Virus record (IMG/VR): IMGVR_UViG_3300025534_000008
Coordinates: 3,310 to 67,309 of that record
From: a virus
Length of the DNA: 64,000 nucleotides
Direction: 5' to 3' (one strand)
Positions 5,496 through 12,115 of this stretch are shown here, in pieces. The stretch's first letter is position 1; each line of letters begins with the position of its first letter. A program made the translations under genes and the position numbers. The notes below the pieces were generated by a model. That model did not search any database and had not been told where the DNA came from. It was given only the letters and a program-made list of their open reading frames with translations.

Positions 5496-5897
5496 TTATA
5501 AATTGTCGTGTATTAATCTTTTTACTTCTTCTATTATATCAATTACAAGTTGTCTATTTTGTTTACTTAACTCTGTACCATAATAAAAAGTTTTATCAGT
5601 TTGTGCCTGTTTAATTATATTATCCAACATAGTTCCTACATCATTATCTGGATATCCTTCTTTAATATCTATATTAATATTTTCAACATCAAACAATAAC
5701 CAGTCAAGAGTAACTTTAAATTTATTGCAAATTGTTATTAAACGAGTAATATCAATTGTTGTAATATCCTTTTTCTTACTTAATTCTAAACACCAGTCCC
5801 CTGATAAGCCTACAAACTTACCAAATTCTTGATAATTTTTAAACCCCATAGACTCTTTTAATAATTGAATTTTTTGCCCTACATTCATTGATGTCAC
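5496..5897 (-). CDS. XRE-family HTH transcriptional regulator
   Basis: GQKIQLLKES...QEFGKFVGLS...ICNKFKVTLDWLLF pattern. Confidence 0.8.
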   Translation of the reverse strand: MTSMNVGQKIQLLKESMGFKNYQEFGKFVGLSGDWCLELSKKKDITTIDITRLITICNKFKVTLDWLLFDVENINIDIKEGYPDNDVGTMLDNIIKQAQTDKTFYYGTELSKQNRQLVIDIIEEVKRLIHDNL

Positions 5898-6343
5898 CTA
5901 CCTTGCCATCTATGATTTATATATTCATTTGCTCCTACATATTTTTTTTGACTAAAAATAATATAATAATGCTTAATTTCTGCACTGATATTTTTTTCAG
6001 ATAGATAAATTAAAGCATTATCATTTAACATACATTCTTGCAAAATATTTGCATCTTCTCTTTTTAAATTATCTTTATCTATAGAAATCAAATACCAGTC
6101 ACTTTTGTTTTTATTTATTAAACTAATATTGTCTAAACCCTTAATCACATCTACCAAAACTGGATAGTTTGTACTTTCTATTAAATTAATCAACAGATCA
6201 ATTTGACACTTATTTTTTAAATCTCTTATTAAATCTAATCTATTATTGATTCCATTCCATATTTTATACGAATATCCTTTATTAACTAATCCTTCAATTA
6301 AAGAGTGAAGTACTTTTTCTTTTCTAATAAGATAATCAAGCAT
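5894..6343 (-). CDS. Hypothetical protein in repressor operon
   Basis: 149 aa, overlaps both neighbours. Confidence 0.75.
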   Translation of the reverse strand: MLDYLIRKEKVLHSLIEGLVNKGYSYKIWNGINNRLDLIRDLKNKCQIDLLINLIESTNYPVLVDVIKGLDNISLINKNKSDWYLISIDKDNLKREDANILQECMLNDNALIYLSEKNISAEIKHYYIIFSQKKYVGANEYINHRWQGR

Positions 6344-7376
6344 TCATTACTCCATCCTTCATATTTTTTAAATAAATTTCTACATCATCTTTAATCTTTA
6401 AATAATACCGTTCAGGATTTTCATCTCCATATTTATATCGCTTACAAATATCAATATAATCATCTTTAGTAAGTTCGCCTTTTTTATTATACATATCAAT
6501 AGCCATACTAATCATACCAGACATATATAAATTATGAATAGTAATAAATTCATTACCACACCAGCTTTGAATACGCTGCATTCGTGCATTGATAACTACT
6601 GGATTTAACTTATCGCATTTTGTATTACCTACTGCACAAAGGACATAATTTCCATATCTATTTATTTTATACTTTCTTGAATCTGTCCCGTCTTCCTCGC
6701 CAATTCCATTATTACTTAAATACTCTGTATCATTATATGTTTTTAAAATTAAATCCATCGTTTCTTGAGATACAGTCAGTTCTCTCATAGTACCATCATT
6801 TCTTACAAGTTCTAAAATACAATCCTTAGTATTTTGACTTTTAGGGTCTATTTGTAAATTTATAATTTCTTCTAATGTTCCACCCCTTACAGTTCTACCT
6901 CTAACTCCGACATAAGGCAACTCTAATAATAATTTATCTTGATTATTAACTAACATATTTTGATATTCTTTTAATTGAGTAGGAGAAATATATCTAAATT
7001 CAGTAGCTTGTTTTGAAACAAAACGTTTTGCTTCTGATTTAGTCAATGTATCAAAAACATTCTGCATATGAACAACTACGCCTTTTTGAATACAAAAATC
7101 TATATATCCTTTTATTCTTGATATAGTACTCATTACTGCTCCAATCGTACTATTTTTAAATTTCATCATTAGCAATTCATCACGTTCAGCTAAAGAAAAA
7201 TTATAAACAGGTTTATTTAATAATTCTTCATATTCATCAACTGCTACAAACGTTGGATACTCCGCTTTAGCAGTATCCAATGGTTTTAACTTTAAATAGT
7301 CTTTCTTTAAATTTTCATCAAATTTAAAACTCAAATTATCTATATTAAACTTTTTTAATTCTTTAGCCATTATCAT
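6336..7376 (-). CDS. SPbeta MrpR/YopR-like repressor (degenerate tyrosine-recombinase fold)
   Basis: SAM-like N-terminus, GVRG...EIINL box, HxxR replaced by HNLYMSG; follows a DGQHR gene as in SPbeta yopQ-yopR. Confidence 0.7.
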   Translation of the reverse strand: MIMAKELKKFNIDNLSFKFDENLKKDYLKLKPLDTAKAEYPTFVAVDEYEELLNKPVYNFSLAERDELLMMKFKNSTIGAVMSTISRIKGYIDFCIQKGVVVHMQNVFDTLTKSEAKRFVSKQATEFRYISPTQLKEYQNMLVNNQDKLLLELPYVGVRGRTVRGGTLEEIINLQIDPKSQNTKDCILELVRNDGTMRELTVSQETMDLILKTYNDTEYLSNNGIGEEDGTDSRKYKINRYGNYVLCAVGNTKCDKLNPVVINARMQRIQSWCGNEFITIHNLYMSGMISMAIDMYNKKGELTKDDYIDICKRYKYGDENPERYYLKIKDDVEIYLKNMKDGVMNA

Positions 7377-8731
7377 TCAACTCCTTCCTTAAATAAATTA
7401 TAAAGATTAGTTCTTAATGTTTTGTTGGCGTCTTTTGGATTTAACATCCCCATGTCTTGCCACATTTGATTATTCATACTAAAATCAATTGACTGCATTT
7501 TTTCTTTAAATAATTCTTTCCAATTGTCTTTATTTAATAATGCCCTGGATAATGCAACATAACCATAAAACATGTTTTTCCAGTTGATAAAGCTACTCTT
7601 TTTAATTTCATAAGGATTTTCTTTGAAATCATATGAATAAAGTTTAATCATATAATCAAAGAATTCAGCAAGCCATCTACCTATCATCCTAATATTATCA
7701 TTATCTTGTTCACCATTTTCATCTATTAATAAATCTTCATATTGCTCTTTTATTGCCAATGCTATATTAGATTTTTTTACTAATGCCTGATTATTACTTA
7801 TATGTCTATCTGTTTCTTTCATAATATCGAAAAGATTAGATTTCTCATCTTCCATAATACCTAACACTCTATTTTCTGCTTTATTATAATCTTTTGTCGA
7901 TAACCACTCCTCACTCATAGGAGTTTGCTTATTAATTTGAACCATTATGGCATGAGCTTTTATCTCACTAACATTATAAATTGTTATACCCCACACAACA
8001 TCCAAATCGGGATTTTCTGCTACAGCAAGAGAATTTGCTTCTTTTCTATGCTGTCCATCAACTACATTAATTACACTACCTTCGTAAACAGTTAATGTTC
8101 TATTTTTAGCATTATAAATCATTTTTTCATTGCCGTTTTTAAGTATATTCAATTTGATATGGTCTGGTTCATATGTTCCCTCAAGTAGTGATTTTTTTAT
8201 TTCTAAAACTTTTTGAGGATTAACATTAATCTTATCTCCTCTTTTAGTTATTTTAGGATTTCTTTGAGTATTAGGATTGTAAATAATAACTTTAGCATCA
8301 TTTAGCTTGGCAAGTTCTTGCGCAGAAATAGTACCTTCCCAGTGATGGTCATTTATCATATTAATGTTTCTAAAAACAATAGGATATATTTTTTCTTTCT
8401 CTTTTTCAAATTTAAAATACTCTAACTCATCAATTTCATGTTTCAAAAAATATTCAGACAAATTAATATTGACATCTAAATCATTTTTAAGTAATGCCTT
8501 ATTTAAAGCATCAGTAAAGAAAAATAACAGTTTTGTATCACCATTATCGTCAACTAATTGCTCAACCGAAGCATTACCCATGATGATTTCAGATGCCAAT
8601 ATTATAATTGCTGAATCTACATTACGTTTTCTTAACTCAATCCCGATATCTTCTTTGACTTTTCTATAGTCTATATTCTTTAAAATATTATTTATTTTTT
8701 GAAATAACTTTTCTTGATTTTCCTTAAACAT
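7373..8731 (-). CDS. DGQHR/DndB-like (ParB-Srx fold) protein, YopQ-like
   Basis: VVDGQHR motif, NPNTQR, 452 aa, synteny with the MrpR-like gene. Confidence 0.8.
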   Translation of the reverse strand: MFKENQEKLFQKINNILKNIDYRKVKEDIGIELRKRNVDSAIIILASEIIMGNASVEQLVDDNGDTKLLFFFTDALNKALLKNDLDVNINLSEYFLKHEIDELEYFKFEKEKEKIYPIVFRNINMINDHHWEGTISAQELAKLNDAKVIIYNPNTQRNPKITKRGDKINVNPQKVLEIKKSLLEGTYEPDHIKLNILKNGNEKMIYNAKNRTLTVYEGSVINVVDGQHRKEANSLAVAENPDLDVVWGITIYNVSEIKAHAIMVQINKQTPMSEEWLSTKDYNKAENRVLGIMEDEKSNLFDIMKETDRHISNNQALVKKSNIALAIKEQYEDLLIDENGEQDNDNIRMIGRWLAEFFDYMIKLYSYDFKENPYEIKKSSFINWKNMFYGYVALSRALLNKDNWKELFKEKMQSIDFSMNNQMWQDMGMLNPKDANKTLRTNLYNLFKEGVE

Positions 8732-8768
8732 AATATATCACACCTTCCCCTTATACCATATATGTATT

Positions 8769-11110: not shown

Positions 11111-11140
11111 ATAATCTCTCCTTTCTATTATTTTTATTTA

Positions 11141-11938
11141 TTAAAAATCATCATCTATGCTATTATCTAGCATATTCTGATGAGATTTTTGCATTTTCCT
11201 AAACTTATCAAAAATGTATGATAAGAAAAATAGTAACAATCCAATCATTAGAGTAGGAATTACTAGGGATAACACACTAAAAATAATCCTTTTAAGCAAT
11301 GAGTATTCATTATTTTTCCCTAACAAGTATACTAGCATACTCCATATTAATATAATCAAACCAGTAAATGAACATGTTATAATAGTAATTGTTTTATCTG
11401 AAAAAAGTTGTTCAAAAAAATTATAAATTGTAATACTGTTTTTTCTATAAATAATATAAAAAATTAAGATAAATTGCATAATTCTTCCTGGTATTGATAT
11501 TAAAAAGTTTATAAAAACATCATGATTAATATCTTCTATAGTTTTATTTATAAAACTTAACGTTATTGGTATATAAATAAACTCAATTACAGTTATAAAC
11601 ACCATCCCAAGAAACACACATAATACTGTTTTTAAAATAATCATTTTGTCATGTAAAAAATTATTCTTCTTTACAATATACACTGTTAAACAAACCATTA
11701 TCGAAAAACTTATCAAAAATGAAATTGGCAATGGAATCTTTGCTATGTATCTTCCGATATTTGAAATTATAGCTGTAGGAATAACTGGAATCATTATATA
11801 TTTTATATTGTATTTCCACATTTTGATATCAAGCAAATCAAATCTTTTTAGTAATATAAGAGTTATTAAAACACACACTAACTCTTCAGGTATACTTACA
11901 AGCAAAGTATTTAATCCTGCGTTAATTAAATCTTTCAT
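11141..11938 (-). CDS. Polytopic membrane protein resembling an AgrC sensor domain, without kinase domain
   Basis: About 7 hydrophobic segments, short polar tail, no H-box or HATPase motifs; stops 30 nt before agrD. Confidence 0.6.
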   Translation of the reverse strand: MKDLINAGLNTLLVSIPEELVCVLITLILLKRFDLLDIKMWKYNIKYIMIPVIPTAIISNIGRYIAKIPLPISFLISFSIMVCLTVYIVKKNNFLHDKMIILKTVLCVFLGMVFITVIEFIYIPITLSFINKTIEDINHDVFINFLISIPGRIMQFILIFYIIYRKNSITIYNFFEQLFSDKTITIITCSFTGLIILIWSMLVYLLGKNNEYSLLKRIIFSVLSLVIPTLMIGLLLFFLSYIFDKFRKMQKSHQNMLDNSIDDDF

Positions 11939-12086
11939 TTTAACATCCCCTTTATTTTTTATAATCTAATTTTAGCATCGTTTTTTGTATTTTGATATAG
12001 TTAACTAAAGTTTATGTTAATTTGTATTTTACTATTGATGAAATAATAATATTAAATTATATTATTATTTACTCTTATGTAATTAC

Positions 12087-12115
12087 ATTATATATCGTTA
12101 TTATTTTGTTGTCAA
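12087..12115 (-). promoter_or_regulatory. sigmaA promoter of the sensor-agrD unit
   Basis: TTGACA-17 nt-TATAAT. Confidence 0.75.

Follow-up and report, generated by a model that had tools for sequence, protein, structure and literature searches.

A kinase-less Agr-type cassette with an HTH-MazF fusion gene beside SPbeta-like repressor genes: a candidate lysis-lysogeny communication system in phages of low-GC anaerobes

Can a phage steer its lysis-lysogeny decision with a cyclic peptide of the Agr type? The question is raised by positions 5496–12115 of a 64-kb stretch of viral DNA (the window in the following; bases 3310–67309 of the IMG/VR virus contig IMGVR_UViG_3300025534_000008, 75 kb in total). 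In this region an Agr-type peptide cassette, including a gene for a fusion of a helix-turn-helix (HTH) domain with MazF, stands upstream of genes resembling the repressor operon of phage SPbeta. Known peptide communication in the lysis-lysogeny decision comprises arbitrium and is of the RRNPP type, mostly in Bacillus phages. To our knowledge, phage agr genes have been seen once before, without a link to a lysis-lysogeny switch. The initial annotation of the locus had proposed cyclic-peptide control of lysogeny through a MazF encoded by the phage itself. The conservation of the cassette beside the repressor genes and the kinship of the 346-aa protein to MrpR spoke for this proposal, which is partly supported; its label "sensor-like" for the membrane protein found no support in homology to AgrC. 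We regard the chances as about evenly balanced that a phage cyclic-lactone signalling system feeds the lysis-lysogeny switch here through the HTH-MazF protein.

The contig had a G + C content of 27% and an estimated completeness of 42%, and it encoded tailed-phage proteins, among them the large terminase subunit and the portal. No similar DNA was found among deposited phages; the relatives compared below were drawn from Logan, JGI, ENA and IMG/VR. All cassette and repressor genes of the region were co-oriented on the minus strand. Their order in the direction of transcription was a promoter, a gene for a protein with seven transmembrane (TM) helices (7-TM protein), agrD, a hairpin, a weak promoter, the HTH-MazF fusion gene, agrB, a LexA-boxed promoter, a small gene, a promoter-like site and a four-gene operon. 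The genes first listed for the locus were all present on this strand, and each was identified computationally.

The Agr-type cassette and the repressor operon

The cassette consisted of four genes (lengths in amino acids, aa; E, expectation value; AF2, AlphaFold 2):

11141–11938, minus strand: seven-helix membrane protein of 265 aa (TM265), from an AgrD-associated family without a kinase domain (AF2 model, homolog search)
10997–11110, minus strand: agrD, a propeptide of 37 aa with a predicted ring S-L-M-W-L (Ser lactone) and an HQPKTPSELR tail (TIGR04223)
9980–10837, minus strand: three-domain protein of 285 aa, with an XRE-like HTH domain (~1–95), a MazF/PemK core (103–210) and a helical tail (~215–285) (PF02452, Foldseek)
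9357–9959, minus strand: agrB, 200 aa, with a TTG start 21 nucleotides (nt) past the stop of the fusion gene (PF04647, E 3.6e-35)

The complete agrB/agrD pair around a phage-encoded MazF was recovered as annotated, by matches to PF04647, TIGR04223 and PF02452 in that order. AgrD scored 33.7 bits against TIGR04223 (cut-off 19) and was built of an amphipathic leader, a five-residue ring and a conserved tail. Fourteen phage orthologs shared the leader, a Ser, four hypervariable residues and the motif [HNY]QPKxP. The four variable ring residues were LMWL, HVVF, IAWF, HSML, AWTF, AAWL, FMWL, WLFT, MFFS, WLGA, WLFS, WFFA, YFIS and WAFS. The ring nucleophile was Ser in 14 of 14 phage AgrDs, and a lactone is therefore predicted; at one further phage locus it was unclear, possibly Thr.

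AgrB carried the catalytic signature R-x3-G-G-x-H-x6-C. Invariant in 15 phage sequences were R76, G80, G81, H83, C90, P131 and N136, including the catalytic His and Cys. In one locus (L005:11475-14064; likewise in L006 and L007) agrB was in two pieces of 140 and 123 aa, with an open reading frame (ORF) of 447 aa without family match between them, an apparent insertion.

Neither an AgrC-type kinase (PF14501, HATPase_c_5) nor a LytTR domain (PF04397) was found in the 75-kb contig, and the same was true for three related genomes rated complete (139, 167 and 227 kb). On these complete relatives the phage thus encodes a signal without the canonical receptor. With the staphylococcal and clostridial AgrBDCA systems the cassette shares the catalytic His and Cys of AgrB, the leader, five-residue ring and tail of AgrD, and a hypervariability of the ring and the neighbouring specificity genes as in the agr hypervariable region. 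It differs in the lack of AgrC and AgrA in the phage and in using Ser, not Cys, as the ring nucleophile. Next to AgrD there is instead a 7-TM protein that profile and fold comparisons did not relate to AgrC, and the adjacent cytoplasmic protein is the HTH-MazF fusion. The Clostridioides difficile phage phiCDHM1 has AgrB, AgrD and an AgrC kinase, and no AgrA (PMC3901668; reviewed in PMC11945551). Phage-encoded AgrB and AgrD without AgrA are common to both; the AgrC kinase sets phiCDHM1 apart, and its agr genes are not reported to be linked with either a repressor operon or MazF. Recent reviews give phiCDHM1-type agrB/C/D as the only phage agr genes, and a 2026 review of phage communication left agr unmentioned. 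Our full-text literature searches returned no description of the cassette arrangement, in line with the first impression that it had not been described, and none of DUF5317, a gene found in related loci.

Residues 103–210 of the fusion protein matched PemK_toxin (PF02452, E 4e-24). This core was 37–42% identical to the solved MazF structures of Staphylococcus aureus and Bacillus subtilis, with a template modelling score (TM-score) of ~0.9 (Foldseek, E 1e-11). The catalytic Arg123 was invariant and the P-I-T/S-T/S motif was kept across 19 homologs. Judged from sequence and fold, this segment is a bona fide MazF. Residues 1–100 formed five helices in the AF2 model (mean predicted local distance difference test, pLDDT, 82 for the fusion), with structural matches to XRE/HTH_3 folds (TM-score 0.6–0.73); no Pfam HTH model reached E 0.1 on this domain. 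Residues 215–285 formed three helices with a conserved Y-C-x-K motif. The 35 homologs of the fusion (~270–298 aa) all came from metagenomes or unannotated records. Among deposited phages, the full-length fusion was not found, with matches to the MazF domain only. No MazE-type antitoxin (PF04014) was detected in the contig, and no small ORF flanked the fusion gene in the window. Fused or domain-extended toxin-antitoxin proteins, in which a toxin core carries extra N- or C-terminal domains without a separate antitoxin, are a possible parallel to the fusion.

The fused MazF was the only MazF-like gene on the contig. Many relatives had a stand-alone second MazF-like gene (126–152 aa) 2–4 kb upstream of the cassette (L005:6902-7360, L014:6223-6672, L018-L022, L027, L029, L142, L148 and L152).

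The repressor operon at the end of the region comprised:

7373–8731, minus strand: YopQ/SroE-like DGQHR (DndB-family) protein, 452 aa (PF14072, E 1e-12; phrog_5732, E 3e-66)
6336–7376, minus strand: YopR/MrpR/SroF-like integrase-fold repressor homolog, 346 aa (MrpR domains; phrog_5830, E 1e-47)
5894–6343, minus strand: gene of 149 aa (p149), translationally coupled by overlapping stop and start codons and conserved after the MrpR homolog
5496–5897, minus strand: XRE-like protein of 133 aa, the last gene of the operon (phrog_8 "transcriptional regulator", E 6e-5)

All four genes were chained by overlapping stop and start codons. In BLASTP, the 452-aa protein was 28% identical to SPbeta YopQ over 378 aa (E 3e-32), and the 346-aa protein 25% identical to SPbeta YopR (E 1e-16). 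The latter scored 42.4 bits with MrpR_N_CB and 27.8 bits with MrpR_C_cat, both above their cut-off of 27, which confirmed the proposed relationship to MrpR. Its only relatives among deposited phages (tblastn) were SPbeta-, phi3T- and Tsamsa-type phages and the Geobacillus phage E3. A DGQHR protein followed directly by an integrase-fold MrpR homolog is the order of the SPbeta repressor pair. Homology to the SPbeta repressor system was limited to these first two genes of the operon. Most related loci had orthologs of p149, which gave no family match, and orthologs of ~131 aa of the XRE-like protein (E 1e-12 to 1e-42).

In SPbeta the order is aimR, aimP, (aimX), yopM to yopP, yopQ and yopR, in agreement with the initial annotation. 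Since aimR-aimP lie upstream of yopQ-yopR there, the Agr cassette stands at the arbitrium position. A single-sequence query with SPbeta AimR, of limited sensitivity, had no match at E up to 1 in the contig or in the virus records of five relatives, of which three were complete. The absence of aimR from the window alone means little, as the contig is only 42% complete; together with the complete relatives, it agrees with the initial annotation.

The likeness to arbitrium goes beyond position. A secreted-peptide module lies directly upstream of, and co-oriented with, YopQ/YopR-type genes, and the peptides differ between related phages. Arbitrium is linked to the host MazF, and in phi3T MazF activity is part of the decision and favours lysogeny (PMC10769878); here a MazF-fusion gene is within the cassette. 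SPbeta-like phages are induced by Sar (YopT in SPbeta), a small LexA-controlled antirepressor (2025 preprint, 10.1101/2025.11.27.690993), and here, too, a small gene with a LexA box adjoins the repressor. There are also differences from arbitrium. No SPbeta AimR homolog was detected, and the signal is predicted to be an AgrB-processed cyclic lactone rather than a linear hexapeptide imported through Opp. The MazF is phage-encoded and HTH-fused, not host-supplied. No equivalents of yopM to yopP were seen, and two extra genes follow the repressor. The hosts are taken to be anaerobic Clostridia instead of Bacillus; two scans of genome contigs with the fusion protein, in search of a host, gave no match.

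The module was conserved in ~20 distinct metagenomic phage loci, as expected from the initial annotation, with fusion proteins 27–59% identical to that of the window (synteny check with phmmer and hidden Markov model annotation). The order in the relatives was DUF5317, 7-TM, AgrD, HTH-MazF, (small ORF), AgrB, (second 7-TM in some), (small gene), YopQ-like, MrpR-like, p149 and XRE. In L013 AgrB was shifted upstream of DUF5317, with the gene set still together. Of 19 loci obtained when IMG/VR was scanned with AgrB as seed, 16 had the whole module and three were ordinary agrBD pairs. Several studies of bioreactor, soil and sludge metagenomes contained near-identical copies of the window's phage, in which the ORFs were preserved (runs X2, X3, X4 and X6; window 5000–13000).

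The seven-helix protein and the variable ring

The AF2 model of the 265-aa protein had seven long TM helices (pLDDT 94; predicted template modelling score, pTM, 0.89), and the positive-inside rule on the predicted helices gave an N-out/C-in topology. This seven-helix topology was its only likeness to the AgrC sensor. An exhaustive HMMER search collected 144 representative homologs, all of 250–325 aa and none with a kinase. Pfam gave no match for the protein and no significant match for ten scanned homologs. There was no solved-structure or Swiss-Prot fold match, and the protein was not found in deposited phages. Partial fold likeness to MreD, the N-terminal region of HisKA_7TM and S-components of energy-coupling factor (ECF) transporters was weak (E 0.02–0.1). 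A relationship of the family to AgrB was rejected (hhalign probability 0.2%). The sole invariant residue was Glu18, within the first TM helix (motif S-I-P-E-E). Prolines were conserved too; besides Glu18, no polar residues were. Some phages had a second, diverged copy directly after agrB, 30–42% identical to the first (L019:11623-12486, L021:11607-12458, L027:11568-12401, L029:11405-12226).

Longer homologs (~305–310 aa) were found on bacterial chromosomes, where their neighbours were genes of sporulation, replication or the ribosome. Those checked in Clostridia had an AgrD-like ORF directly after them, with a Ser or Cys ring and an [HY]QP[KR]xPK tail (examples are L094:7001-8060, L095:7001-8150, L096:7001-8054 and L098-L133). 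The family was present in 13 of 300 genomes of one bacterial class, often in two copies. A downstream AgrD was recognized at at least 12 of 20 chromosomal loci (including L099), and an adjacent AgrB, sometimes divergent, at 9 of the 20. The commonest conserved neighbour was an XRE HTH_3 protein (9 of 16 loci), which parallels the phage order of 7-TM, AgrD and XRE-HTH fusion. These chromosomal loci look like an undescribed Agr subtype.

One genome, G001, had two 7-TM homologs, the one checked being followed by an AgrD-like ORF, and its AgrB lay on another contig. G001 also encoded a TM-less AgrC-type kinase of 221 aa (L164:1495-2160), adjacent to an AgrA-like receiver-LytTR regulator (L164:2304-3101). 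This kinase may be a split partner of the 7-TM protein. As general partners of the family, TM-less AgrC-type kinases were not borne out, with no correlation across a small sample of 41 genomes; short kinases also occurred in two genomes without the family. Tied to AgrD in phages and bacteria, the 7-TM family is an uncharacterised Agr component and a candidate for sensing or export in clostridial AgrBD systems without AgrC.

The ring and the 7-TM protein varied most. Among the near-identical copies of the window's phage, most contig pieces differed from it by 0–4 bases (~2% or less), and pieces over agrD and the 7-TM gene were ~9–14% diverged (single low-depth contigs). One copy, again a single low-depth contig, had the ring SLMWF and an NQP tail. 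Within the subgroup L018-L029 the 7-TM protein was the most diverged product of the module. Between L027 and L029, for example, identity was 91% for the fusion, 83% for DUF5317, 67% for AgrB and 41% for the 7-TM protein, with the rings YFIS and WAFS. Loci with the similar rings WLFT, WLFS and WLGA had the most similar 7-TM proteins (63–70%), their YopQ homologs being only 23–53% identical. Across 14 loci, ring similarity correlated with protein identity for the 7-TM protein (Mantel r 0.62), AgrB (0.68) and the fusion (0.60), and not significantly for the YopQ homolog (r 0.16, p 0.08). Partial Mantel correlations were all modest (0.29–0.45, p < 0.02). New in this analysis are the kinase-less 7-TM protein, its pairing with AgrD in chromosomes, its evolution as the fastest in the module, the hypervariable ring, and the likeness of the LexA-boxed gene to Sar in position and regulation only.

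A reading of the locus and its alternatives

Read as a signalling system that feeds the switch, the region would control lysis and lysogeny in a large, temperate tailed phage that infects low-GC anaerobes, and would do so in three layers. The first would be the repressor operon with its YopQ-like, YopR/MrpR-like, 149-aa and XRE-like genes. The LexA-boxed small gene would add a separate SOS input as an SOS-induced antirepressor, a functional analogue of Sar/YopT. The kinase-less Agr cassette would form the third layer, where SPbeta has aimR-aimP-aimX. AgrB would cut the HQPKxP tail off AgrD and close the five-residue Ser lactone S-L-M-W-L. Once outside the cell, the peptide would build up as infected or lysogenic cells become more numerous. 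The co-transcribed 7-TM protein would handle the variable ring, most likely as its receptor and less likely as an exporter or maturation factor. The output would be the XRE-HTH::MazF::tail protein, which could bias the decision by DNA binding and/or mRNA cleavage, by analogy with the phi3T MazF towards lysogeny at a high peptide level. Two such layers, peptide and SOS, would mirror the control described for arbitrium phages (PMC10769878; 10.1101/2025.11.27.690993).

Peptide production, the sensing partner, the fusion as effector and the direction of the effect are what we infer from gene content and analogy, together with the coupling of peptide, 7-TM protein and MazF fusion to each other or to the repressor. 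LytTR regulatory systems, with a kinase-less membrane inhibitor and a stand-alone DNA-binding regulator, are a possible parallel to the pair of 7-TM protein and fusion. Only tentatively do we suggest the further step, that the lactone is read by a kinase-less 7-TM receptor directly controlling the HTH-MazF effector. This would be a new transduction route and a private arbitrium-like channel, and the same family would fill the place of the receptor missing from "orphan" clostridial AgrBD systems.

What stands at the arbitrium position, beside SPbeta-type repressor genes, is an Agr-type cassette, and this in a whole lineage of 140–230 kb phages of anaerobes. Where arbitrium phages rely on a host MazF, this phage has a MazF gene of its own. 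Should the signalling reading be true, phage communication would gain a second chemical language and reach into Clostridia, and MazF control of lysogeny would recur in a distant phage lineage, with a phage-encoded enzyme.

Several results weigh against this reading. The membrane protein had been annotated as sensor-like: a membrane protein with seven TM helices it is, and "kinase-less" is right, while "AgrC-like" is not supported. Comparison with 18 HPK10/AgrC-type N-termini gave an hhalign probability of 4% (E 0.01), and no AgrC was among the Swiss-Prot Foldseek hits. A transporter, too, could have such an invariant Glu within the membrane. By the Mantel and partial Mantel tests, the 7-TM protein could not be singled out as the ring partner in preference to AgrB or the fusion. 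Homology of the N-terminal domain of the fusion to the bacterial XRE neighbours was too weak to be accepted (hhalign E 0.014, probability 3%). With its catalytic residues intact and no MazE to oppose it, the MazF could be no more than a toxin or an abortive-infection module, and the peptide may use the host AgrCA. Unlike nearly all relatives, the window has no DUF5317 gene, and no RNA runs holding the window sequence were found. To judge from the ring comparisons, the genes of the cassette co-vary as a unit whose recombination is independent of the YopQ/MrpR pair. Moreover, all loci belong to one phage lineage, in which the gene order could be inherited and not functionally required. The shared order is therefore weaker evidence of coupling than it appears.

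The best of the alternatives, possible in our view if somewhat doubtful, takes the cassette as accessory (a moron). The Agr peptide would mimic or jam the host Agr system, and HTH-MazF would independently be a toxin, abortive-infection or superinfection-exclusion module. Adjacency to the repressor would come from the clustering of lysogeny-expressed genes. Besides the independent recombination of cassette and repressor pair, there is precedent for this: phage agr genes without a shown role in lysogeny are known from phiCDHM1 (PMC3901668), and MazF-like "growth inhibitor" genes are common in phages (phrog_1936, and many MazF-only matches). The second small MazF gene 2–4 kb upstream in many relatives fits as well. 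With no phage-encoded AgrC or AgrA found, the only known receptors would be those of the host. Homologous 7-TM/AgrD pairs exist in host Clostridia; the cassette may have come from such pairs and may cross-talk with them. An accessory role accounts less well for the fusion gene and agrB sharing one transcription unit, and for the four genes staying together across 27–59% identity and one rearrangement. A ring that is hypervariable between close phages is easier to reconcile with private channels than with imitation of a single host signal, and the position of the cassette matches that of SPbeta arbitrium.

In a second alternative, which we hold unlikely, the peptide would still be a phage signal and the 7-TM protein its exporter or second maturation factor, with a host AgrC-type or VirS-type kinase as the sensor and HTH-MazF as only a local regulator or toxin. 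In staphylococci, MroQ or an unknown transporter has such a role in export or second maturation. Glu18 in the first TM helix and the conserved prolines, with polar residues otherwise not conserved, are reminiscent of a site in a transporter or carrier, and the partial, weak resemblance in fold to ECF S-components and MreD points the same way. The family stays with AgrD even where AgrB is elsewhere in the genome, as for a substrate-specific processing or export partner; a kinase or other output domain was found in 0 of 144 homologs, and G001 offers a TM-less AgrC-type kinase beside an AgrA-like regulator in a host-type genome. On the other hand, a phage with a private hypervariable ring and no receptor could not read its own signal. 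Furthermore, the recurrent neighbours of the bacterial pairs are XRE regulators, not kinases, and the second diverged 7-TM copy after agrB in some phages is easier to understand for receptors than for exporters.

That the genes are real and the cassette a decaying, functionless cargo in the window's phage is very improbable: the absence of DUF5317, the agrB split by the 447-aa ORF in L005-L007 and the weak promoter of the fusion gene would fit, set against four intact ORFs with their catalytic residues kept, a consensus promoter on the 7-TM/agrD unit, strong ribosome-binding sites, and near-identical copies with preserved ORFs in several studies.

The LexA-boxed gene, transcription signals and neighbouring genes

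The small gene between agrB and the repressor operon, and the signals read along the region, were as follows:

9150–9178, minus strand: promoter TTGCAA-17-TATAAT of the small gene (promoter scan)
9128–9141, minus strand: perfect LexA/Cheo box CGAACAAATGTTCG, starting 8 nt after the -10 of TTGCAA-17-TATAAT (pattern scan)
8817–9095, minus strand: gene of 92 aa under the LexA box, a candidate SOS-induced antirepressor, with its start after AAAGGGGG (ORF track: 105 aa from 9134)
12087–12115, minus strand: promoter TTGACA-17-TATAAT of the 7-TM/agrD unit (12 of 12 consensus positions; consensus match only)
10955–10987, minus strand: perfect hairpin after agrD, a probable terminator, with 16-nt arms, a 1-base loop and an A/T-rich tail (read from the sequence)
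10891–10920, minus strand: putative weaker promoter TTGCAT-18-TATAAT of the fusion/agrB unit (read from the sequence; below the threshold of the promoter scan)
8769–8797, minus strand: promoter-like site TTGACT-17-TACAAT before the repressor operon (promoter scan)

The box CGAACAAATGTTCG was the only GAAC-N4-GTTC site in the 64-kb window, and a LexA box was found at the same position in L003/L004 and L005-L007. For the annotated LexA-boxed gene the box was confirmed and the start revised. The ATG at 9134 is inside the LexA box and the ATG at 9095 is behind the AAAGGGGG ribosome-binding site, so that the 92-aa start is the most likely. This length agrees with the orthologs of 89–92 aa called in L002 and L003; orthologs of 89–133 aa were found in L002, L005, L016, L020, L027 and L137.

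The 92-aa protein had no family, PDB or Atlas match, and BLASTP and PDB sequence searches showed no similarity to YopT. Known Sar proteins share less than 20% identity, and the empty searches against YopT are for this reason uninformative. Sar binds SroF (YopR) by DNA mimicry (10.1101/2025.11.27.690993, also for the identity of the Sar proteins). In agreement with this preprint, we found a GAAC-N4-GTTC site before yopT in SPbeta, between yopS and yopT (L010:9442-9453). Like Sar/YopT, the window's gene would encode a small protein, has a LexA box over its promoter and lies beside an integrase-fold repressor. It is found upstream of the yopQ-yopR homologs, whereas Sar/YopT is encoded downstream of yopR, and there is no sequence similarity between them. 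The gene is thus a candidate Sar analogue in position and regulation only.

Promoter-like sites were not enriched over the whole region. The hairpin after agrD was not returned by the terminator scan because its T-run is short. The ribosome-binding sites of the cassette genes were strong, as read from the sequence. No repeated operator-like motif stood out in 5300–12500, where no systematic operator search was made.

Beyond the repressor operon, the window had an ORF of 416 aa with an HNH/Cys-rich centre (3582–4832, minus strand), between the XRE-like gene and a lytic-transglycosylase-like gene (2807–3607, minus strand). At the place of this ORF the relatives had an SLT gene, with TnpB/OrfB_IS605 genes nearby.

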